The notes under the pieces are model-generated. The model did not search any database. It was not told where the DNA came from and was given only the letters and a program-made list of their open reading frames with translations. From contig CAXXFK010000042.1 in assembly GCA_963663965.2 (NCBI GenBank), positions 128,001-192,000 of the forward strand: a stretch of 64,000 bases of DNA, in the 5' to 3' direction. The DNA comes from Sedimentisphaerales bacterium (GTDB lineage Bacteria > Planctomycetota > Phycisphaerae > Sedimentisphaerales > SM23-30). Positions 2,365 to 23,516 of this stretch are shown here, one piece after another. Within the stretch, counting starts at the first letter, position 1. Each line of letters begins with the position of its first letter. Made by a program: the position numbers and the translations under genes.

Positions 2365-4374
2365 TTAGTTGATACAATCGGGGACTAAAGCGCAGTCCAG
2401 CCATTGACTCATCATCATGGAAAAATCGTCAAGATCGACTTTGCAGTCGTTATTGACATCCACCGCCGGTTGTATGGACCGCATACAGACGGTCTTACCG
2501 GTGATTGTGGTATAGGCCTGGGCAATCTCCAGTTCGGAAACCGGATAATTGTACAATTTGATTTCGTCAATCTGGCCATCCAGGAAATTGAGTCCAGATT
2601 TGATTTTACCGATGTGGAGCCCATCGGGCGCATCCAGCCGTCCAGCCGGTCCGGTACCGGTGGCTTCCAATTCGCCATCGACGTAGACATTGATCCGGCC
2701 GGATACATGATCACGGGTGGCCACACAATAATGCCATTCATTGTCGTTAACCGCCGAGATCGACGCAAGAGTCATGGATGGACCAATACCCAGGCAGAAA
2801 TGATTATTACTCAAGCTGGCGCCGAAATCATTTTGCAGGCCGGGCATATCGCCATCGACCAGGCCGCTGCCGGTCCACCAGTTGTTGTCGCCACCGGTGG
2901 CTTCCGTTTTCAGCCATAAGGCAATGGAGAAACTATCCTGAATCAAACGCGGGATTTGAACGGCTTCATCGATCCCGTTAAGCACGATGGCCTGACCGGC
3001 GATCCCATCGGTATAGGTGAACGGGGTATTGGGATCGTGTTTGATCGGTGTGCCGTCATTTTCTCCGACTGAGTCAATCAGGTCATTTTCGAATGCGTAC
3101 CAGGCCAGCAGGCGATAAAGCTCAAGATAGGCCACATCTGACTTAACCGGAATTTCACTTTCATTTGTCACTTCACAATAATAAAAGCCCTCATCGGTTA
3201 GCTGGCAGTCGTTGAGTGTCAAAAGATTGGAGCCGGAGGTTAACAGGGTATCATCCTCTGGTGTTTCGTTACTGTTATCCTCAGATCGATACCAGTGATA
3301 AGCTGTGGGCGAAATACTCGTGACTTCGATCGAAAAATCGGCAGTAGCGCCGTTGGCGACCAGTACATCCTGAGGTTGCCGGACAATAACCGGTGAGCTT
3401 TTACGGGTTTCAAAAGACCAGACCGGGCTCTGGACTGTGTTGGGTTCTTCCGGGGTGGATCCATTAATGGCCTGATCGACCCGCCAGTAATAGGTTTGAT
3501 CCATCGTCAGGGTCTGGGGATAAAGCATTCTTTCTGCAGGAGGGGTATCGGCCGGAATAACCACGGGTTCAACCTCGATAAAATTCGGTTCACCGGACGC
3601 CAGATAGAAATAATAAGCGGTGATATCCGGGTTGGGTAAATCATCGGGTCCTTTGCCGGTATCCCAGCCAAACTCCACTTTGACATTGCTGGTTTCGCCA
3701 AGGATTTCTCCAACGGCGATTTCGTCCGGAGACGGGGAGGGATTATGCGCCGCCAATGGAATGTAAGTCAATGTCACATTATCCAGGGTCCAGTCGCCCC
3801 CGGTGCTTCCGACGGTGGTATCCAGCCAGATACCGAATCCGGAGCCGATCGCCGTGGCGGGAATGTCTTCGGCATTTAACGTGGTGGAAAAATTGGTCAG
3901 GGAGGTATTGCTTAAGTCGCTGTAAACGACTTCCGTAACAGCCAGAATCGTCAGAGCGGGTACCCGGGTGAAAAGTCGCAATGCCATTTTGGTATCGGCC
4001 GGGTTCGATGGGGCGGAATCGGACCGGGCGGCGATACCAACGGTCAGGATATAGGTACCGGGCTGAAGTGAGTAGGGCAGGTCGATGTAGATGTTATTTT
4101 TACTGCCGCCTGCTCCTCCGGCATAACAATTCATAAACGCCAGTTGTTTGCCATCGGTGTTGGTGATGAAATTGCCAAATCCTGCAGAATTATTGAAGAC
4201 GCCCGTTGCCCCGGTATCGCCCCAATCTGCGATCGTCATAACGAAACTACTGGTTGCGGGCGCTTCGAATGAATAATTAGGAACTGTCAGGGCAATTCCT
4301 CCCCAGGCTGATGTGACCCAAATGGCTAGAAATCCCAATGTTAATGTAAACGTGACCAGCTTTTTCATTTTCAT
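2365..4374 (-). CDS. Secreted LamG-like jellyroll/Ig-domain protein with C-terminal dockerin-like motif
   Basis: Signal peptide MKMKKLVTFTLTLGFLAIWVTSAWG; Ig segment (QPQDV...DEGFYYCEVTN); LamG motifs WHYCVAT, VYVDG and GQIDEIKLYN; C-terminal DVNNDCKVDLDDFSMMMSQWL. The start may be 4368. Confidence 0.8.
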   Translation of the reverse strand: MKMKKLVTFTLTLGFLAIWVTSAWGGIALTVPNYSFEAPATSSFVMTIADWGDTGATGVFNNSAGFGNFITNTDGKQLAFMNCYAGGAGGSKNNIYIDLPYSLQPGTYILTVGIAARSDSAPSNPADTKMALRLFTRVPALTILAVTEVVYSDLSNTSLTNFSTTLNAEDIPATAIGSGFGIWLDTTVGSTGGDWTLDNVTLTYIPLAAHNPSPSPDEIAVGEILGETSNVKVEFGWDTGKGPDDLPNPDITAYYFYLASGEPNFIEVEPVVIPADTPPAERMLYPQTLTMDQTYYWRVDQAINGSTPEEPNTVQSPVWSFETRKSSPVIVRQPQDVLVANGATADFSIEVTSISPTAYHWYRSEDNSNETPEDDTLLTSGSNLLTLNDCQLTDEGFYYCEVTNESEIPVKSDVAYLELYRLLAWYAFENDLIDSVGENDGTPIKHDPNTPFTYTDGIAGQAIVLNGIDEAVQIPRLIQDSFSIALWLKTEATGGDNNWWTGSGLVDGDMPGLQNDFGASLSNNHFCLGIGPSMTLASISAVNDNEWHYCVATRDHVSGRINVYVDGELEATGTGPAGRLDAPDGLHIGKIKSGLNFLDGQIDEIKLYNYPVSELEIAQAYTTITGKTVCMRSIQPAVDVNNDCKVDLDDFSMMMSQWLDCALVPDCIN

Positions 4375-4444
4375 ACTCCACATCGTAATTTGATAAATAG
4401 TTCTTGGAGCGGACCATCCGCTTGATTTTAATATTTAAACAGCT

Positions 4445-5548
4445 TCAGTCAGGCGTCAGGGGACGGTTGCGTGCTTTGGGCGCCGATTGAAGTGAAGATG
4501 TTTTCAGGTCGACGATTACCGGCCATTTCCCTGATTGACTGCGATAGCCGGTCTGATTTTGTGCCATATGGATGAAGGCAAGCATGTTTTCCAGGGAGGT
4601 ATCGCCCTCAACGGCGTGAGAGGGAGAAAAAATAAGGCCGCCTTTCAGGCCGGCTTGCAATAGTCGGGAGGATGCGGTTTCGACCTCTTGAATGGAGCCG
4701 AACGGCAGGGTCTGCTGCATGGACAGACCGCCGTGAAACGCCAGTTGGCCGCGGTAGCGTTCCAGGAGGGTAAAGACATCCATCACTTCCGGCTGGAATG
4801 GGTTAAAACAGTCCAGCCCGGCTTCGATTAAATCATCGAACAGTTCATCGACATCCCCGCAGCTATGAATAAAAACAAATTTTCCGGCCTGCCGGACTGC
4901 GGCGTACATCCGCTTCAGCTGGGGCAGGATATAGGTTCTCCAGAATGCCGGCCCCATAATCAGGCCGTGCTGCTGGCCCCAGTCATCGCCAAAATATACT
5001 GCGTCGATATCGTATTGGAGCGCTTCTTGCACCTGGGCGATATTGTAATCGGTAATGGCAGTCATCAGGGCGTGGACAAAATCGGGATGATCGATAAAAT
5101 CCATCATCAGATTTTCCATGCCGCGCAGAGACCAGGCGCGTTCAAAAAGGGAAAACCCAATTTCAAACAGGCGGAAACAATCCGGATATTGGGCGATGGA
5201 TGCATTGATATTGGAGAAAAAACGGGGATCCCGCGGATCCGGTAATTGATACGTGGCTAATGTTGGTTCTGATAATACGGTCCCCTGTACGATTCCGATG
5301 TCTTTATCGATGGTACGATCCCAGATAACGCCAAAAACATCCTGGAAATGATTGGGGGAGATTTCTTCGAAGAATCCGATATCACTACCCAACCGGACAA
5401 TATGGTTATCCACCGTGGTTTCAATGTCTTCTGTGCCATAATGAGTTGCCAGCAGTTGATGAGCTTCATGAGTAAACTTAAATGACCAGGGAGTATAGGG
5501 CACAGAGTGGCCTTGTAGAGCAAGTTTTACCAACTGTCGTTTTGTCAT
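4445..5548 (-). CDS. Uroporphyrinogen decarboxylase (URO-D/MtaA-CmuA-like) family protein
   Basis: Motifs LRGMENLMMD, GDDWGQQHGLIMGP, FIHSCGDV, NPFQPE and FSPSHAV are typical of the URO-D-like/methyltransferase superfamily. Confidence 0.85.
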   Translation of the reverse strand: MTKRQLVKLALQGHSVPYTPWSFKFTHEAHQLLATHYGTEDIETTVDNHIVRLGSDIGFFEEISPNHFQDVFGVIWDRTIDKDIGIVQGTVLSEPTLATYQLPDPRDPRFFSNINASIAQYPDCFRLFEIGFSLFERAWSLRGMENLMMDFIDHPDFVHALMTAITDYNIAQVQEALQYDIDAVYFGDDWGQQHGLIMGPAFWRTYILPQLKRMYAAVRQAGKFVFIHSCGDVDELFDDLIEAGLDCFNPFQPEVMDVFTLLERYRGQLAFHGGLSMQQTLPFGSIQEVETASSRLLQAGLKGGLIFSPSHAVEGDTSLENMLAFIHMAQNQTGYRSQSGKWPVIVDLKTSSLQSAPKARNRPLTPD

Positions 5549-15456: not shown

Positions 15457-15653
15457 AACGTCCTCCGTTACTGTTATTGTTATCGGGCCAGTATTTTGCT
15501 TATTTTCTAACAGAAAAAGCCACCCTGTTGCAAGCTAATAAATCGTTAAACACAGGATATTCTTTTGGGCCTGCCAAAATTAGGGTTTTCAGCTTCTCTA
15601 ATTTAATTATACTGCAATTGTGTGATGATTGGTTCACAGGTTTCAGGAAATTC

Positions 15654-16274
15654 ATGAATTCAAAAAACAGAAAAAAACGGTTTATATGGGATATCAGGCT
15701 TTTGCCACTGCAATTCTGGCGGTGGTGGGGTATGGGTGTGGTGATAGTCGTTTTGTTTCTGATCGGATTTCAACGACCCGCCGCCAATCCATTTGCTGAG
15801 GATGATTTCGCTCGTTACCATCAGCAGTGTTGCCGGGTTATCGAAGTGGTTGATGGCGACACATTGCAGGTGGATGTTCCTGATCCACTGACCGGCCAGG
15901 ATACGACACGTATACGATTGTGGGGGGTGGATACGCCTGAAACACGCCATCCGGAAAAAGGGGTGATGTATTTTGGTCCGGAAGCCGCTGAATTCACCCG
16001 ATACTGCGCGCTTGATCAAACGGTTGAACTGATACTGGAACCCAATCAGTCCTCCCGCGACCGTTATCAGCGGTTGCTGGCTTATGTGTTACTGCCGGAT
16101 GGTTCGGTTCTTAATGAAAATCTCATCCGTAAGGGATATGGTTACGCGGATTCCAGATTCGACCATGTTCTGCGTGACCGGTTTATAGAACTGCAAAAGC
16201 AGGCCCGCCGGGAAAAAGCCGGGCTCTGGCGGGAGGTTCAGCCTGAGCAATATCCGGATTGGTTTGAGGATTGA
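15654..16274 (+). CDS. Thermonuclease (SNase-like) with N-terminal membrane anchor
   Basis: VVDGDT, RIRLWGVDTPE, DRYQRLLAYV, NENLIRKGY and AR.EKAGLW; hydrophobic N-terminal segment. Confidence 0.92.
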   Translation: MNSKNRKKRFIWDIRLLPLQFWRWWGMGVVIVVLFLIGFQRPAANPFAEDDFARYHQQCCRVIEVVDGDTLQVDVPDPLTGQDTTRIRLWGVDTPETRHPEKGVMYFGPEAAEFTRYCALDQTVELILEPNQSSRDRYQRLLAYVLLPDGSVLNENLIRKGYGYADSRFDHVLRDRFIELQKQARREKAGLWREVQPEQYPDWFED

Positions 16275-16297: not shown

Positions 16298-17859
16298 TTA
16301 GGCCCTTAGTTCCATAAATGCTTTTTTTAATGGCAATCCCTGGTCTGGATTAACCATAGTGATATAGGCGATCATGCCTCCGAGCCAGGCTTCGAAGTTG
16401 GGGATGTTATGTTTATTTTGCGCTGTAAGCCCTTCATGCCGGGCGCGATGGAGGATGGCGCGGATCCGGCGGACCTGTTTTCGGGGTACGCCCGGTCTTT
16501 CATTGACGACTATGCCGGTTACCAACTGGGCGGCGCTGGGCCGGAGAATACGGGTCTTATCTTTGTTGATACTGAAGTTTTCATCCTGAACAATATGGCG
16601 TATCCGGGCCAGTATGTATCCAACCATGGTGTTCTGATCATCCCGGTCGGTCGAAAAACTGATATCATCGGCATATCGCGAGTAGCGCCAGCCCAGTTTT
16701 TCGGCCATAGCCGCCAGGCGCAGGTCCAGCCGGTGGGCGATCAGATTGCTGATGGCCGGACTGCAACAGGAGCCCTGGGGCAGGGCGCGCGGGCCGGAGG
16801 CTACAAAGAAAGACTTGCCGGCGTAATCGACTTTACGGCGGGGCGGTTCCGTGCAGATCAAAGCCAGGATGGTTGCCACGGCCGGGGAATACCCCATTTT
16901 CTGAAAGAGGCCGCGTATCCGCGGAAAGGTGATGCCGGGGAAAAAGTCTTTCAAGTCGCAATTAATAAGGATTTTGCTTTGGCTGTGGTTGGCGGCGTTG
17001 GATACGGTACTGCGGCCGGGGACAAAACCATGCGCGGCCGGATGAGTGTTAGTTTTGTTGAAAATATTGGCAAAGATCCACTGCTGGCATTGGGCGAGGT
17101 TCTTCTTCGGAGCAGAGATTGTTCTCATTCCGCCGCTCTTTTTGGGAATCTGGAAATTGATATAGTTGCTGGTGCGGGTGCTCTGGGCATGAAAGGCCAG
17201 CCAGCGTAATTTTGGAATCGTTATTCCCATGGCTTGCGCTACTTCGGCCGGCGTACTCAGAACCGGCAGGCCTGATGCCTGCAATGCCTCCACATTGGAG
17301 CGGCGATCGTGCAGGCCGGTCGATACGCCGCGTCCCAGGTAGATAATATCGGTTGCCCGGCGATGGGCCACGGCTTCGGCGTGCTGTTGACGGCGTTCCA
17401 AGGCTTCCTGCTTCTTTTGAGCTTTCAGCGCGGCCTGGGCCTCACGTGATTGCTGAACTGCCGCGGTGGCCCGGGCGACGGCGGTCTGGACGGAGGGACG
17501 CAGTTCATCCATCTGGGCCCCAATGGTATGAATTTCGACCAGTTCTTCCGGTGTAATGATGCCCTGCGCTACCATGGAACGGTCGATGGTGTGGGTCAGT
17601 TTGTCTGTAACAGGGGGAATGCGGTTACGACTGCGGAAAGCGATCCGGCTGCCGAATAATAATGATGAAGCCGTGACAGGGCCATCATCTTCTGTCGGCT
17701 GGAACTGGGATGCATCCAGTTTGAGGGATTCCCGGATATCTTTAGGCGCTCGCGGCTGACTGGTTGGACGGGATAGAGTACGCGACAAATGGTCCTGGAT
17801 CGACCGATTGATTGGCCGGTTGCGATTTTGTCTGGCCCTGAGCCGATCCCAGATAATTA
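16298..17859 (-). CDS. Retron-type reverse transcriptase, 3' part after the IS insertion (catalytic core intact)
   Basis: IPKKSGGMRTISAP, AAHGF, retron region X NAANH (NAxxH), DLKDFFPGI, LPQG, YADD and retron region Y LVTGIVVN. The frame stays open from 17859 to the ORF-track TTG at 17788. Confidence 0.93.
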
Positions 17860-19687
17860 GAGCCTGTCCGCAATTCTTGGATTTTGTGAGCCGCGGTTTT
17901 GGGAGGACTGATTTTGAATCGTATCATCAGTAGATGACGGCTGGTGTCCAGGTTATTTTCGTTCAGCGGGTGATTTTCCGATTTCTGCGCATAGTAGCCC
18001 CATAAACAGGGCAAGCCGGGGTGGTTTTAAGCCACTTTTTGTCGTTCTTTTTCCCGTTCTTCCTCTTGAGCCAGCTTAATTCTGGCCAATACCCAGAGGT
18101 TGTGCGATAAAATGCTCAGGCCCATATGGACTTGGCGGTGATCAAAGCCTTTTTGTTTCATGGGCGCCCCGCAAAAACCATGGCTCAGGATGCTGATTCG
18201 GGCTTCGGTCTGACTGCGGCGAGTCTGAGCCTGCCGGAACGGCTCTTCCTGAAGCCTTTCCTTCAGCAAGGCCGGGCTGAGCGGACAAACCGCATTAAAA
18301 ATATCGTGACTTTCCATGTATTGGCGATTCCCGGCGCTGTCGAAGCCCCGATCGCCGGCCAACAGCTTGACTTGATTACCAAGCTTCTCTTCCATACGCC
18401 GGTGGCTGGCTTTAAGCATTTTTTCATCGCTGGGACCTTGCTGACGAAATAACTTCCAGTCCATGATTAAGCCATTGGATTGTTCGGCCAGATAAAGTTG
18501 GTTGCCAAATTCCGTCTCCGCGCCGGCCTTGCGGCGCACGATCACATGGATATCCGGCTCGTAAAGGCTCAAGATCTTGTCTGGATTGGCAACCTTGCGT
18601 TCGCCGATCATGCGTTCGTGAGCCTGCCTGACCACGGCGGCCAACTGACAGGTCACGCCGGTAATCTGTTTGACGATTTGCCGGACGGAACCGAGAGCGA
18701 TATCGGCCTTTTTCCAGTGGTTTTCCAGGTTTTTCAGATGATTTTCCGCATGATTCAAGACCCGCCGGATCAGTTTTTTCATCTTTCGCAAAACCGCTTT
18801 ACGCAGTTTTTTCGCGCCCTTTTTGCGGTTAACATAGGTCATCTCCATGCAGAGCTTATTCATGTTTGAAATAAACTTAGCCGGCTCGCAAGGCATGCGA
18901 CACAGGATCCCGGCTTTACGAATACGGGCCGTCGCCTTCATCAAGGTACGGGTCGCATCTCTAAACAGCAGCCAGTCGATCGGATAATGAATGTGGGCGC
19001 CAATGCAGGTACAGTCAAAATAAGCCTGACTGAAATCCAGGGGGGCCTCCAAAACAACCGAACCCTGGGCCACTTGAAAAAACAGTTCTTCCGCCTGAGC
19101 GATTAACTGAGGCGAAAGCGCGTTTTCCAACTCGTTGATTCTGGTTTTGCCGGGGATCCGAGGCAGATCAAAGCGGTTAATGCCGCAAAACCACTGATAC
19201 AGTTCGCTATGAGACAAGGCCACGGCAAATTTACGCAACGACAAACCCAGCCGCTTACGCAGGATCGACATCCGTAACGCCCAAACGGCCTGGGCACGAA
19301 TATTCATGCGATCCGTATGGGTTAATTTAACCGGCGTGTCAGTGCCAAAGTGCTCGATGGCCATTTCAGCGTAAGCTTTGTCGAGAAAATACTGGAGAAA
19401 CAACTGCTCCAGATCGCTGTGGCGGATGATCTGGTCCATGGCCAGCAACTGCTGGCGTTCCTGGCGATACTCCAGACAGCCAAATTCTTCCGGAATACCT
19501 TTGTCAAACAACTGCTGAACGGGTAAAATCTCTGGCATAGGTGTGTTCCCTTTTTTAAGGAAAAATGATTCGCAAAACATTTTATAACACACCTATTTTA
19601 CGGTTTTGACCCAAAATAGCACGCTATAACTCCGACTCTTTTACATAATCTTCTGAAATCTATAGGGTTAAAGCTACGGACAGGCTC
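17860..19687 (-). mobile_element. Insertion sequence (IS5-like/ISNCY-type DDE), 1,828 bp, inserted in the RT gene
   Basis: Terminal inverted repeats GAGCCTGTCCG at 17860-17870 and CGGACAGGCTC at 19677-19687. TAATTA is duplicated at 17854-17859 and 19688-19693. The TIR/TSD split is ambiguous because the target is palindromic. Confidence 0.92.
18027..19538 (-). CDS. DDE transposase (IS5-like/ISNCY)
   Basis: FDCTCIGAHIHYPIDWLL, KILSLYEPD, EFGNQ, AGDRGFDS and RRSQTEARI; lies between the TIRs. ATG 19538 has an AAGGGA RBS. Confidence 0.9.
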   Translation of the reverse strand: MPEILPVQQLFDKGIPEEFGCLEYRQERQQLLAMDQIIRHSDLEQLFLQYFLDKAYAEMAIEHFGTDTPVKLTHTDRMNIRAQAVWALRMSILRKRLGLSLRKFAVALSHSELYQWFCGINRFDLPRIPGKTRINELENALSPQLIAQAEELFFQVAQGSVVLEAPLDFSQAYFDCTCIGAHIHYPIDWLLFRDATRTLMKATARIRKAGILCRMPCEPAKFISNMNKLCMEMTYVNRKKGAKKLRKAVLRKMKKLIRRVLNHAENHLKNLENHWKKADIALGSVRQIVKQITGVTCQLAAVVRQAHERMIGERKVANPDKILSLYEPDIHVIVRRKAGAETEFGNQLYLAEQSNGLIMDWKLFRQQGPSDEKMLKASHRRMEEKLGNQVKLLAGDRGFDSAGNRQYMESHDIFNAVCPLSPALLKERLQEEPFRQAQTRRSQTEARISILSHGFCGAPMKQKGFDHRQVHMGLSILSHNLWVLARIKLAQEEEREKERQKVA

Positions 19688-19763
19688 TAATTACGATCAG
19701 GATTGCCCCGATGCAGATCACCCGGATAATCGTCATAATCACAGAGCCAAGCATGATGGTCAT
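19688..19763 (-). CDS. 5' fragment of the retron RT gene (hydrophobic N-terminus), separated from the rest by the IS
   Basis: ATG 19763 with GAGGA RBS gives MTIMLGSVIMTIIRVICIGAILIVI. It joins the RT in frame once the IS and one TAATTA copy are removed. Confidence 0.8.
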
Positions 19764-19793
19764 TTGATTCCTCACTACAGTAAACATAAAAAA

Positions 19794-19999
19794 GACAAGG
19801 CAGCTCCTGACTTCATCCCATGGACCAGGGACGTTCACCAAAGGCCCATAACAGCTATATGTGAGGGAAAGCCTCTGGCTTGCTATGGCCCAAACATATA
19901 GCTGTTATGGGCCATACAGAAAAACGGCTCTGGGTACGCAATGCTACCCGGATTCACCCGCGGCGGATCGCCGCAGAAAAGTCTCAGGAGCTGCCTGTC
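19794..19999 (-). ncRNA. Retron msr-msd non-coding RNA
   Basis: Perfect 13-bp a1/a2 inverted repeat (AGGCAGCTCCTGA 19798-19810 / TCAGGAGCTGCCT 19984-19996). An unpaired G follows a2 (19983). msr hairpins lie at 19960-19974 and 19932-19949, and a perfect 20-bp msd stem at 19843-19862/19894-19913. It sits directly upstream of the RT start. Confidence 0.85.
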
Positions 20000-21691
20000 C
20001 TGTTGTCAAATGGTTATACCACTGTTCCAGAGTGGTATCCGGTTTATGGTCTCCGGTCCACAACGCCAGGCGTATGGCCTGCATATGCCGGCAGGGACCG
20101 TTTTTTAAGCGATACTGGCGGAAATAACCGCAGCAACAATTACCCCGGCGAATCGCACCGTCGGCATCCATCAAAATATCACAGGATATCTTATCCACCT
20201 CGGCACGGTATAATGTCAGACCGGGTTTAATTTCTTCCTGTTGCCGGTTTTTGATTTTCTGTTCGGCTGCCAGCTGTCTGGCCGCGTTATATTCATCATG
20301 GGCCGGGCCGGTTTGCAGGCAGGCCACCGCGTGTGGCATAATCTGACGCCAGCGGTAAACCTGGTTGGGTAAATCGAAGATAATCTGGCCGGTATGGGCC
20401 AGGTGGCGTAATGACGCCGCAAGTTCAGCCGGCCGGGATGAACCGGTCAGTTCTATCTGCTTGAAAGTTGCGGCCTTGTTGCGCTGAAGGTAATTGCCTG
20501 CCTGGTTTATCCTGTCCTGAGCCGGTTCAACCGGTGGGGCTATCATATCCAGCGCGCATACTCTTGTCCAGTCGTTTGTCGTCCAGCCTGACAGTCCCAG
20601 GGTCAGGTGCATCTCACCCATATTCACTACCCAGAAACTGGGCAAACCTGTGCCCAGCAGATAGACATCCACCGATTCCGCCAATGGCAGGGCACGGGCC
20701 AGGGTCATCAGCCGCCGGCGTCCCCATATCCGGATTGGTTCGCAATCCGGCCCATGGTAACAGGCGCCATAGGAAATAATCGGTTTTTCCCAGGGTTCCA
20801 GAATCATTACCGGCGGCTTATCCGCCAATAATTCAAATCGAATGGCGCGGGGGCCGGTCTTTTCCCGGTTCCGTTTCAGAAATGCCAGCAGGGAATAAAC
20901 CGCTTCCGTAGAAAGGGTAACTCGCCGCATCGGCATGCTCATCACACTTTGAATCTGTAGAAAGCCTTGCAGCCAGCTGTCGGGCAGATCGATTTTTTCT
21001 TCCCGATACCCCGGTTCATCCGCCACGGAAACCTCAAAGCCGCCCGGATCGATTTCGAACCGGGTTTCGCGATAACTGCGCAAGCCCTGAAAATGATGAT
21101 AGAGATCCCAGGAATAATCGACATTGGTGGTTCCATACTGACTGGCGGTATCTGATCCAAAACCATCCGTACGATTCACACTCAGGCAACCGTAGCTCGA
21201 CTCATCCGCGGAAAAGCATTCAAAGAATATGACATCATCCGCCACGGTGATGACCGGATCCATCAGCAACAGGTATTGCCGGAACAGCTTGGGATTGGTC
21301 AGCATGATATGGCGCCGATATTTGCGATGGGCGCCCCAGTATCGTTTCACCGCCTGTTGATGGCTCCATTCGAAATCCTCCGGCAACGGCGAGGCCTCAA
21401 TCGCTTTTTTCATTTCCTGCCGGTATGCCTCTCGATAGAACACCGATTCCATCGTTCGCTGGTTCTTTTTCCATTCTTCGTAACTGCTTTTATCGCGTTT
21501 CTGATAACGCAGATCGCTGATAACGATATCATGCAGGGTGGAAATGGCTTCGCGGAAACGCAGGGGGTGTAAAAAAGCGGCGCGTTAAAAGCGACCGCGT
21601 CACGTTTTAAATTGGGCTGCAAGGTGACCTGCTGATGCCCGTCGGCCGCGATGATGCGGCTGCGATTGCGATAGGCAACGGCTAATTCCAT
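19944..21691 (-). CDS. SWIM zinc-finger domain protein (retron-associated), one frameshift near 21571-21576
   Basis: ORFs 21410-21691 and 19944-21452 join across a T6 run (...APL/LHPLRFREAISTLHDIVISDLRY...WKKNQRTMESVF). C-terminal SWIM motif CCCGYF...GPCRH. The start overlaps the stop of the upstream gene. Confidence 0.8.
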
Positions 21692-23409
21692 GCATCCACC
21701 TCCGCCCGCGTTAATTGCAGTTCCGGCAGATGTGCCTGCACCGGTTCCAGCAGGTCCGGCCGCCGGTCAATCACACTGACCACCGCAGCCAGTCCATCAC
21801 CGGCTTCGGTTGTTCGTACCGATCGGATTGCCACACCGAGAATGGGCAGCAGCATTTCAGCTTTGTCCGGATGTTCAATCAAGGCTCGGCTTACCTGCCG
21901 CAATGCCTTGAGTTTCTGGCGTGAACCTCGCTGGATATTGAGTAATACCGAACGCCAGATCAGGCTCAGGTTATCACTACCGGCGCCCGGGATAGACTGA
22001 CGTTCCAGCCAGTTAATCAGATTCAATTTCAGGTCATCATAGGGTGTTTCCAGCAGGCGAATCCAAAGTTGACTGTCGTTCTGAACATTCGCGGGGGCGT
22101 CCGTCAGCCATTGCCAGGCAGAATGACGGCAGTTTGCCTGTAGACTGTCAAAGAATCGTATGACGGAATCGTTCTGGTAATTGTCTTCCTGACCCAGATG
22201 TCCCAGGGCAAAACCGGCTAGTTCACCGGCCAGCGCTTCGCATTGTGCTTCTGCCAGTTGCGACAGTCTGGGAATATCTTCTCTGACCAGAGTTCGTAGT
22301 TTCAGAAATTCAAATCCAAGCTGTGCGACCGGTGCTTGACGAGCGATGCTCAATTCCAGGCAGTCGCCCAGATTCAACCGGTCGGGCCGCACGACTTCGC
22401 GCATTTTATCGCAGATCCGGGCCTGGACATCGGGATTATCCGTGGCGAGCAGTTTAAACCAGGTTGATAACGGCAGCGAATGCAACTGCTTGAGAGAATG
22501 AAATAAATCCGCCCCAAAGTTCTGGAGGTCGGGATGAGGATTTTCCAGTAATTGGATAATAAATTCGACCGAAAGCTCCTGCAGGGCCGGGCCATGCTTC
22601 TGTTCCAGCATCTGCCGGGCCCATCTCCGCACCAGCGCCGACCGGGCTGACAGTAATAGTGTGGTTAATCGATCGTAAGCCTGCGGTGTTTCCCATAATT
22701 CCGGTCGATAGGGGGCCACCTCCAACTGCTCCAGGGCCTGTCCTTCCCGAATTGCTGCTTTAGCGGCGGTAAATTCAAACGCCGAATGATGATAGTAGCA
22801 GGCGTGTATGAATCCCCAGTTGTCCAGGATATGTTCCACTTTGCTGAAATCCGAATCCTGATAACGAGCCAGCCAGTCGCCAGCTAATGCCAGATATCGT
22901 TGTGGTTCGCTCCAGGCGAGTTTTCGAATATAGCGCCAGGCTCGCCGTCTTAAATAGTAGCGGGTATGGCTGGAGAATAACACGCCATTGCCACCCATCT
23001 CGTAACCGTTGGGTATCAGGCTGTTATGCGGCAATACCAGTGTTTCGCCTTCAAAAACCGTTTGGGATTCCCAGTCCCACTGTCGAAACTTTTTTCGTTC
23101 GCGGCGAATCGTCCGGTCAAATGCCAGCATGAAAAGTCCCATCAATTCATCATCCTGCCTGGCTTCAGCGTGTTTGAATAGATTTTTGACCAGGGGGTGA
23201 TGGCCCATGACAGTGAAAGGCATGCCCAGATATTGAATCAGTTGTTCGCGAGCCCAGGGGCGGGGATCCTGTTTCCAGCGTTCAGAAAAGGCTTTCAAAA
23301 ACTTCGAGCTTTTTACACTCCTTAAGACAGATAGAAAATACTGATTTTGCGTATTGAAATATTCTTCCAGTACAATCGTAGAATTCTTATGTCCGTTTTT
23401 TTTGACCAT
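21682..23409 (-). CDS. HEAT/ARM-repeat alpha-solenoid protein (retron-associated)
   Basis: 575 aa, Leu-rich helical repeats with HEAT-like patterns (LLENPHPDLQNFG, LLATDNPDVQARI, FFDSLQANCRHSAW, LLETPYDDLKL); translationally coupled to the SWIM gene. Confidence 0.7.
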   Translation of the reverse strand: MVKKNGHKNSTIVLEEYFNTQNQYFLSVLRSVKSSKFLKAFSERWKQDPRPWAREQLIQYLGMPFTVMGHHPLVKNLFKHAEARQDDELMGLFMLAFDRTIRRERKKFRQWDWESQTVFEGETLVLPHNSLIPNGYEMGGNGVLFSSHTRYYLRRRAWRYIRKLAWSEPQRYLALAGDWLARYQDSDFSKVEHILDNWGFIHACYYHHSAFEFTAAKAAIREGQALEQLEVAPYRPELWETPQAYDRLTTLLLSARSALVRRWARQMLEQKHGPALQELSVEFIIQLLENPHPDLQNFGADLFHSLKQLHSLPLSTWFKLLATDNPDVQARICDKMREVVRPDRLNLGDCLELSIARQAPVAQLGFEFLKLRTLVREDIPRLSQLAEAQCEALAGELAGFALGHLGQEDNYQNDSVIRFFDSLQANCRHSAWQWLTDAPANVQNDSQLWIRLLETPYDDLKLNLINWLERQSIPGAGSDNLSLIWRSVLLNIQRGSRQKLKALRQVSRALIEHPDKAEMLLPILGVAIRSVRTTEAGDGLAAVVSVIDRRPDLLEPVQAHLPELQLTRAEVDAWN

Positions 23410-23488
23410 AATGACCTTGTCGGCCCAAACTCGCCATTTTTTCTATTCAATTCCCATACTCCTATATGGGAATATTTACACCGATATA

Positions 23489-23516
23489 ATCCTAAATAAT
23501 CCTGATCCGATGTCAA
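23489..23516 (-). promoter_or_regulatory. Sigma70-like promoter for the retron operon
   Basis: TTGACA (23516-23511), 16-nt spacer, TAGGAT (23494-23489), about 80 bp upstream of the ARM gene in an AT-rich spacer. Confidence 0.5.

Follow-up and report, generated by a model that had tools for sequence, protein, structure and literature searches.

A type XIII retron in a planctomycete genome, most likely disabled by an insertion sequence and a frameshift

The stretch of DNA analyzed here (the window) spans 64,000 nucleotides of a Sedimentisphaerales bacterium genome (assembly GCA_963663965.2, contig CAXXFK010000042.1, positions 128,001 to 192,000), and all positions below are counted from its first letter. 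Between 23516 and 16298, its minus strand holds a chromosomal type XIII retron of a lineage widespread in Planctomycetota and Verrucomicrobiota, which is very probably a disabled, decaying copy. We identified two independent and recent lesions, namely an insertion sequence (IS) within the reverse transcriptase (RT) gene and the loss of one base in a run of T residues of the SWIM partner gene. The template RNA is untouched. The split RT gene, together with the frameshifted SWIM gene, makes it most likely that the locus is disabled and decaying. As judged by sequence similarity, this is a retron of a known kind, whose occurrence in Planctomycetota is already published, and probably a decayed member of type XIII in which two of the three genes are damaged and the template RNA is intact.

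Architecture of the locus and assignment to type XIII

Read from 23516 to 16298, the locus is composed of an open reading frame (ORF) of 575 amino acids, a gene spread over two frames, approximately 250 nucleotides of non-coding sequence, an ORF of 521 amino acids (19592..18027) and an ORF of 496 amino acids (17788..16298), all lying on the same strand (Table 1). The three retron proteins each have their best matches on the type XIII retron models of PADLOC. The HEAT/ARM protein covers positions 4-562 of the 564 in HEAT-ARM_XIII (PDLC02922, E 5.3e-183), the second-frame part of the SWIM protein covers positions 72-502 of the 509 in SWIM_XIII (E 5.9e-148), and the RT reaches 530.7 bits on RT_XIII (PDLC02956, E 9.4e-160), followed by RT_other (333 bits) and RT_outgroup (313 bits). 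These profile E-values (5e-183, 6e-148 and 9e-160 when rounded), together with that of the RNA model (3e-45), place the parts far beyond chance. The RT also matches Pfam RVT_1 (E 9e-22) and carries the motifs NAANH, YADD and VTG; NAxxH and VTG are motifs of retron RTs, and YADD is the catalytic site. With the best score on RT_XIII taken as a proxy, the enzyme can be assigned to retron RT clade 10.

Relatives were collected by scanning genome contigs with an alignment of 26 RT homologues. The scan returned 525 relatives, and the best 80 of them (L025-L104) were kept. If the RT belonged to another class, such as group II introns, diversity-generating retroelements (DGRs), Abi/UG or Drt, its neighbors would be unrelated genes. 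We give this reading next to no weight. The weak matches to group II intron RT (63 bits), Drt2 and Drt3a (both below 40 bits) are those expected for any RT, whereas the retron families of NCBIfam score 210-234 bits and RT_XIII far more. Moreover, a covarying RNA flanked by the repeats a1 and a2 lies beside the RT in 73 of the 80 relatives, and the partner genes are linked to it in 49 of 61 loci. The RT scores, the RNA covariation and the partner linkage together refute the assignment to group II introns, DGRs, Abi/UG or Drt.

A previous sequence-only reading of the region had described a complete type XIII retron operon, with co-oriented HEAT/ARM, SWIM, RNA and RT parts, a SWIM start overlapping the stop of the gene before it, and an RT with the motifs NAxxH, YADD and VTG. 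All parts, the overlap and all three motifs are indeed present on the minus strand, and the type XIII call agrees both with the PADLOC models, a check which that reading had proposed, and with the published definition. Neither did the RT score with group II introns, an outcome that had been named in advance as refuting, nor with Drt. The operon is not complete, however, as the RT gene is split and the SWIM gene frameshifted, and IS rather than non-coding RNA (ncRNA) makes up most of the 2.1 kb that separate the SWIM stop from the RT ORF.

The definition is that of Mestre et al. 2020 (PMC7736814), where type XIII combines RT clade 10 with two kinds of partner, a DEDE/winged-helix/SWIM protein and HEAT/ARM proteins, a subset of which bear a WGR-like domain. 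The members listed there are Retron-Mxa1/Mx162, Mxa2/Mx65, Sau1/Sa163 and Nex2/Ne144, and a distinct ncRNA is described. A 2026 survey counts 143 type XIII candidates, 26 of which are in Planctomycetota (PMC13712802). The window locus resembles these retrons in its RT, in a SWIM partner with a CxCx12CxH finger and a DEDE-like motif, in the HEAT/ARM gene that precedes the SWIM gene, and in the a1/a2-flanked ncRNA adjoining the RT gene. It differs from the myxobacterial members in its host, a planctomycete of the class Phycisphaerae. The overlap of its RNA with the SWIM gene is a modest difference from published type XIII, and its interruption by an IS and a frameshift sets it apart from intact copies.

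An insertion sequence splits the reverse transcriptase gene

The IS lies approximately 25 codons into the RT gene, directly after the N-terminal hydrophobic helix, and its ends are marked by a perfect inverted repeat of 17 nucleotides (17854-17870 and 19677-19693). When the IS and one copy of the target duplication were removed by script, a single open frame of 590 codons was obtained. This restored frame is collinear across the junction, from the first residues, with the full-length homologues P0002, P0007, P0010 and P0015 (530-575 amino acids), which indicates that the IS sits inside the RT gene. The inferred start codon, ATG 19763, is preceded by GAGGA.

The 7.2-Mb genome harbors 8 full copies and 1 partial copy of the same element, with 99-100% identity, and all 8 full copies are flanked by a 6-bp TANNTA. 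At one of them (L006) the flanks do not form a direct repeat, as TAGTTA and TAACTA are reverse complements of each other. The transposase scores 205.7 bits on the ISNCY family of NCBIfam (cut-off 325) and 118 bits on IS5, and has a weak N-terminal match to Pfam DUF772. The element is like IS5/ISNCY in that its DDE transposase has a DUF772 region, its terminal inverted repeats are short and its target site is duplicated, but the family scores are below the curated cut-offs and the TANNTA duplication is known from the 8 copies of this genome only.

Most RTs of the 80 relatives start with an amphipathic motif (MGLF.WL..LFG); a proline-rich linker comes next, and then approximately 150 amino acids of conserved extension. 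The window RT is part of a minority with a helix of transmembrane grade in place of this motif, which we found in 7 of 42 RT homologues. No hydrophobic N-terminal peptide of this kind was found in the available part of PMC7736814.

A frameshift in the SWIM partner gene

The ATG at 21691, which overlaps the stop codon of the HEAT/ARM gene (21684-21682), opens an ORF of 93 amino acids. The remainder of the SWIM gene lies in another frame from 21581 onwards, where the longest ORF, of 502 amino acids, ends at 19944. The frame switches between AFNAPL and FLHPLRFREAIS, and one extra T would restore the conserved reading. We mapped the frameshift with the SWIM proteins from 11 related loci. For 9 of these, the frame of ATG 21691 matches residues 1 to approximately 40-50, and that of the long ORF matches everything from approximately residue 37 to the C terminus. 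The L027 and L039 queries began only at a downstream ATG, and that from L083 was without a match in the frame of ATG 21691. By comparison with these homologues, the gene appears to have lost one base (a -1 frameshift) in the T run, at around codon 40 and inside the clamp-like fold described below. We rejected programmed frameshifting as an explanation, because each of the 41 homologue genes followed from its own start codon stays in one frame throughout, so that the shift is a lesion rather than a programmed event.

Table 1. Features of the type XIII retron locus and of the IS that interrupts it (window coordinates)
Feature	Position	Strand	Basis or remark
Sigma-70-like promoter match, TTGACA-16 nt-TAGGAT	23489..23516	-	Consensus match only; ~80 nt upstream of the ARM start
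HEAT/ARM-repeat partner gene, 575 aa, intact	21682..23409	-	PADLOC HEAT-ARM_XIII
SWIM gene, first ~38 codons, frame of ATG 21691	21577..21691	-	SWIM_XIII profile positions 1-39
T6 run, frame switch point in the SWIM gene	21571..21576	-	-1 relative to homologues
SWIM gene, remaining 545 codons and stop, second frame	19944..21581	-	SWIM_XIII
SWIM zinc finger CxCx12CxH, C-terminal	20085-20138	-	Exact pattern; residues 482-499 of the 545-aa frame
Retron ncRNA (msr-msd), intact	19785..20012	-	Covariance model R1, 163.3 bits, E 3e-45, positions 1-231 of 231
a1 arm, 13-nt perfect inverted repeat	19984..19996	-	Inverted-repeat scan
msr hairpin (helix 2), conserved	19958..19976	-	98.6% of cells paired, many G-U
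Long msd hairpin (helix 4), 25-bp stem in the window	19843..19913	-	Inverted-repeat scan
a2 arm of the inverted repeat	19798..19810	-	Helix 1 covaries in 6/7 pairs
RT gene, 5' fragment	19688..19763	-	Inferred start ATG 19763-19761; ~25 codons, hydrophobic helix; ends at the IS
TAATTA, 6-bp target duplication	17854-17859 and 19688-19693		Flanks the IS
IS, 1828 bp, 11-bp terminal inverted repeats	17860..19687	-	Flank comparison of genome copies
521-aa DDE transposase gene of the IS	19592..18027	-	Co-oriented with the retron operon
RT gene, 3' part	16298..17859	-	Longest ORF from TTG 17788, 496 aa; all conserved regions and catalytic motifs
RT motif NAANH	16985-16999	-	Residue 264 of the 496-aa ORF
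RT motif YADD	16664-16675	-	Residue 372 of the 496-aa ORF
RT motif VTG	16514-16522	-	Residue 423 of the 496-aa ORF

Both lesions are present in assembled reads

We compared the window with the assembled contigs of two public sequencing runs from one sample, which is probably the source sample of the assembly. Contigs of both runs bridge both junctions between the IS and its flanks, and are identical to the window over 19661-21800, including the T6 run. Depth is 2-3.4 on unique DNA and approximately 35 on the IS. At a depth of 2-3, none of the contigs spans an uninterrupted insertion site, a result that is compatible with a minority of uninterrupted cells. Since the sample is probably that from which the assembly was made, the contigs confirm the data rather than support them independently. 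At position 19653, within the IS, both runs have a T where the window has a C, probably a difference between IS copies that was collapsed by the assembly.

The template RNA is full length and conserved in structure

The structured RNA that the sequence-only reading had placed between the SWIM and RT genes is borne out by a covariance model and by covariation among relatives. Its 5' part overlaps the last 18 or so codons of the SWIM gene. The model, R1, was built from an alignment (A2) of the window with 18 loci that have a1/a2-type repeats spaced by 190-215 nucleotides near the SWIM stop, and thus from relatives within the Planctomycetes-Verrucomicrobia-Chlamydiae (PVC) group plus the window rather than from the published type XIII RNA model. 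R1 matches 73 of the 80 related loci, and for 3 of the 7 loci without a match (L054, L073 and L090) the available sequence does not extend upstream of the RT. In the genome of the window we detected no second copy of the RNA, and no Rfam family matches between 15500 and 24500 at E up to 1.

RNAalifold predicted 52 pairs from the 19 sequences of A2, of which 33 show compensatory changes. In an alignment of 76 rows, 96.7% of the cells in paired columns are paired, as compared to 69.6% in shuffles (0 out of 500 reach the observed value) and 32-44% when the pairing partners are slid. This alignment was fitted to the model and hence favors the structure. The controls with slid partners and the independent result from MAFFT and RNAalifold nonetheless indicate that the structure is real.

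All 21 family pairs of helix 4, the long msd hairpin, show compensatory changes, with only 2 G-U cells, and helix 3, which closes it, has 0 G-U cells. The msr hairpin is rich in G-U pairs. This pattern likely marks the boundary between the msr, which needs to fold as RNA only, and the msd, which must also fold as DNA.

In retrons in general, reverse transcription is primed from the 2'-OH of a G next to the a1/a2 duplex. By analogy, the G at 19983, directly after a1, is the putative branching G. This G is nearly invariant in A2, where the columns A16 and G17 hardly vary.

The RNA gene varies in its place within the operon, since in six relatives (L065, L067, L070, L072, L077 and L103, at about 3900-4650) it lies between the ARM and SWIM genes. 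Two relatives have two copies of the RNA, in tandem in L064 (351-839) and flanking the SWIM gene in L065 (3926-4157 and 6014-6243).

Distribution and gene neighborhood of the lineage

The best 80 of the 525 relatives are labeled Planctomycetota or Verrucomicrobiota, save for a few odd labels of metagenome-assembled genomes (MAGs). Isolates among the relatives are Singulisphaera acidiphila DSM 18658, Prosthecobacter fluviatilis, Novipirellula sp. SH528, Anatilimnocola sp. NA78 and Bremerella sp. JC770. Linkage of the RT to both partners was the expectation on which the retron reading had been staked beforehand. Within the 61 loci that have at least 4.6 kb of upstream sequence, the ARM, SWIM and RT genes follow one another in this order and are co-oriented in 49, the SWIM gene alone accompanies the RT in 1, and neither partner is present in 11.

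In these 11 loci (L030, L036, L052, L053, L061, L082, L084, L089, L093, L096 and L101) neither an ARM nor a SWIM gene occurs within 6.5 kb on either side of the RT, and the RNA is kept in 10 of them. PADLOC scans of 11 neighboring proteins from five such loci returned no retron partner. One neighbor protein gave an unrelated ankyrin/PDC-M72A match. The loci lacking partners may be either solo units or users of unrecognized partners.

The host had been called a probable planctomycete, and the carA gene upstream of the retron agrees with this, since its best named matches are Sedimentisphaerales and Phycisphaerae MAGs with approximately 70% identity. Downstream lie a convergent SNase-like nuclease gene, TrmO and a PhzF-like gene. 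The SNase/thermonuclease-like gene (15477-16274, plus strand) encodes a hydrophobic N-terminal region and converges on the 3' end of the RT gene, 24 nucleotides from its stop. The genome has no second SWIM_XIII gene.

These data bear on the possibility that the system does not serve phage defense but a domesticated, vertically maintained cellular function, as argued for myxobacterial retrons, in which case the decay would reflect the loss of dispensable genes. We regard this as improbable. The correlation between type XIII and host 16S is moderate (0.78), and domestication was raised on that occasion (PMC7736814); the housekeeping neighbors carA, TrmO and PhzF-like and the lack of an enzyme-type effector also fit such a function. 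However, the retron is patchy among close kin: across 60 genomes of the same family or order, none exceeds 260 bits on RT_XIII, as compared to 533 bits here, and only weaker retron-type matches (141-260 bits) occur, in 7 genomes. The 11 out of 61 loci without partners, 10 of which keep the RNA, likewise suggest a modular rather than a housekeeping system.

Predicted folds of the partner proteins

The HEAT/ARM protein has only a sub-threshold Pfam match, to HEAT_2. Its AlphaFold2 model is an alpha-solenoid with a mean predicted local distance difference test (pLDDT) of 88.4. A fold search with this model returned generic HEAT-repeat solenoids (AP2, CAND1, PP2A-A and karyopherins), all with template modeling scores below 0.3, and hence no specific structural relative. 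The sequence-only reading had seen no WGR domain in this protein, and we detected none either: there is no Pfam match at E up to 0.01, and the match to the WGR_XIII profile is confined to its repeat part (positions 243-498 of 973). The protein thus differs from the WGR-bearing type XIII partners. By itself this does not make the locus a distinct subtype, as clusters with HEAT/ARM only are already listed within type XIII (PMC7736814). From its sequence, the partner fits such a cluster rather than the WGR-bearing variant of cluster 216_1.

The AT-rich promoter region proposed upstream of this gene stands in part. Its GC content is indeed lower (0.43-0.45) than that of the genes (0.51-0.58), while the sigma-70-like site is a consensus match only, one of 12 such sites in the region as compared to 7.3 +/- 3.0 in shuffles.

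For the SWIM protein, an AlphaFold2 model of the 545-amino acid second frame, computed with 43 homologues (pLDDT 77.5), resembles sliding clamps, PCNA among them (Foldseek E 3.6e-9). VIA-align superposed residues 1-334 of the model on human PCNA with Z 20.3 and a root-mean-square deviation of 2.9 A over 230 of approximately 246 residues. The SWIM partner is therefore predicted to contain a whole PCNA-protomer fold. PCNA protomers of human (2zvk_A and 1axc_A) and of Sulfolobus (2ix2_B) are superposed by residues up to approximately 335, but the sequence identity is only 8-13%, and the SWIM protein has a helical insertion of approximately 100 residues and a fused tail with a putative winged helix, a beta part and the SWIM finger. 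A unit of helices followed by strands occupies residues 355-411 or so of the model, between the clamp-like part and the SWIM finger; PCNA matches dominated the lists of fold matches. Neither Pfam nor NCBIfam assigns the protein to a sliding-clamp sequence family.

The acidic DEDE motif of Mestre et al., published as Dx7[D]x4Ex30-32Dx37E with a winged helix upstream of the SWIM finger (PMC7736814), falls within the PCNA-like fold. The window protein has a DEDE-like version (D108-x7-D116-x4-E121, then D155 and E194/195), whose spacing is one residue longer than the published one. Across 44 SWIM sequences, D108 and E121 never vary, and D116 and D155 rarely do. A FREA..H motif, located within the N-terminal 115 residues or so, is also invariant.

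The shared fold by itself shows no function, and a ring of such protomers is hypothetical. A prediction of the homo-dimer of residues 1-372 of an intact homologue scored 0.00, which speaks neither for nor against a ring or dimer. In the literature searched we found no paper that links retrons to sliding clamps or PCNA; the sole co-occurrence (PMC8632793) is an entry in a reference list on a group II intron protein.

Is the retron still functional?

By analogy with other retrons and from the predicted folds, intact relatives may work as follows. The operon would consist of a promoter, the HEAT/ARM gene, the PCNA-fold/SWIM gene, the msr-msd RNA starting in the 3' end of the latter, and the RT gene. 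Its transcript would fold so that a1 pairs with a2, and the RT would prime on the 2'-OH of the G beside this duplex and copy the msd into a single-stranded DNA of approximately 120-135 nucleotides with a long perfect hairpin (the multicopy single-stranded DNA, or msDNA). Both partners would hold the resulting RT-msDNA particle, the HEAT/ARM solenoid as a scaffold and the SWIM protein, with its clamp-like fold, zinc finger and acidic motif, as DNA binder and probable effector. Interference of a phage with the msDNA would then release or activate the effector, as in other retrons. Neither partner has a recognized nuclease or other enzyme domain in Pfam or NCBIfam, so that the effector step is a guess.

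For the window copy we infer loss of function. Several observations weigh against a broken defense system. In addition to the lack of an enzyme domain just mentioned, the locus lies among housekeeping genes and not in a defense island, and we found no experimental work on defense by type XIII in the literature, supplements aside; type XIII is likewise not mentioned in the available parts, without supplements, of a retron census preprint and of PMC12548924. Others concern the lesions themselves. The RT ORF from TTG 17788 is open, keeps every conserved region and all motifs, and has AGGA 4 nucleotides before its start. The transposase gene is co-oriented with the operon, and read-through from it could express the RT ORF. 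The N-terminal transmembrane helix that the ORF lacks may be dispensable, given that most RT homologues do without a true one. The T6 run is covered by shallow reads (depth 2-3) of the probable source sample, and an assembly error there is possible.

Taken together, these points could mean that the retron still works. Read-through from the IS, or from the operon promoter, would yield an RT starting at TTG 17788 that acts in trans on the ncRNA, which is full length. The SWIM protein would come either from an intact gene, if the T6 run reflects an assembly error, or from translational re-initiation at ATG 21452. We consider this unlikely. The two runs agree on the T6 run, although they come from one sample, and re-initiation at 21452 would remove approximately 115 N-terminal residues, including the FREA..H motif and predicted strands of the clamp. 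In addition, 1.8 kb of IS now separate the RT from its RNA and promoter. A disabled, decaying copy thus remains our preferred explanation.

A more speculative proposal, which we judge doubtful, is that the type XIII retrons of planctomycetes and verrucomicrobia form a distinct working variant. The SWIM/DEDE partner would be a PCNA-type clamp that grips or encircles the msDNA hairpin, the WGR-less HEAT/ARM protein a loader-like scaffold, and the RT would be anchored, in the membrane or on a partner, through its hydrophobic or amphipathic N-terminal peptide on the proline-rich linker. The two knock-outs of the window copy would then have been favored by selection, the system being costly or toxic, and would not be a product of neutral decay.

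Conclusions

In annotation, the locus should be labeled as a type XIII retron whose RT gene is disrupted and whose partner gene is frameshifted, and is not to be counted as a complete defense system. Cultured carriers with intact operons, namely Singulisphaera acidiphila DSM 18658, Prosthecobacter fluviatilis and the isolates of Novipirellula, Anatilimnocola and Bremerella, are suited to tests. For the template RNA of this large PVC lineage (about 525 loci), the analysis provides both an alignment and a covariance model, as well as a sequence signature that may tell the part folding only as RNA from the part that also folds as DNA. Finally, the whole PCNA-type fold predicted in the SWIM partner offers a testable idea for a retron type of unknown mechanism.

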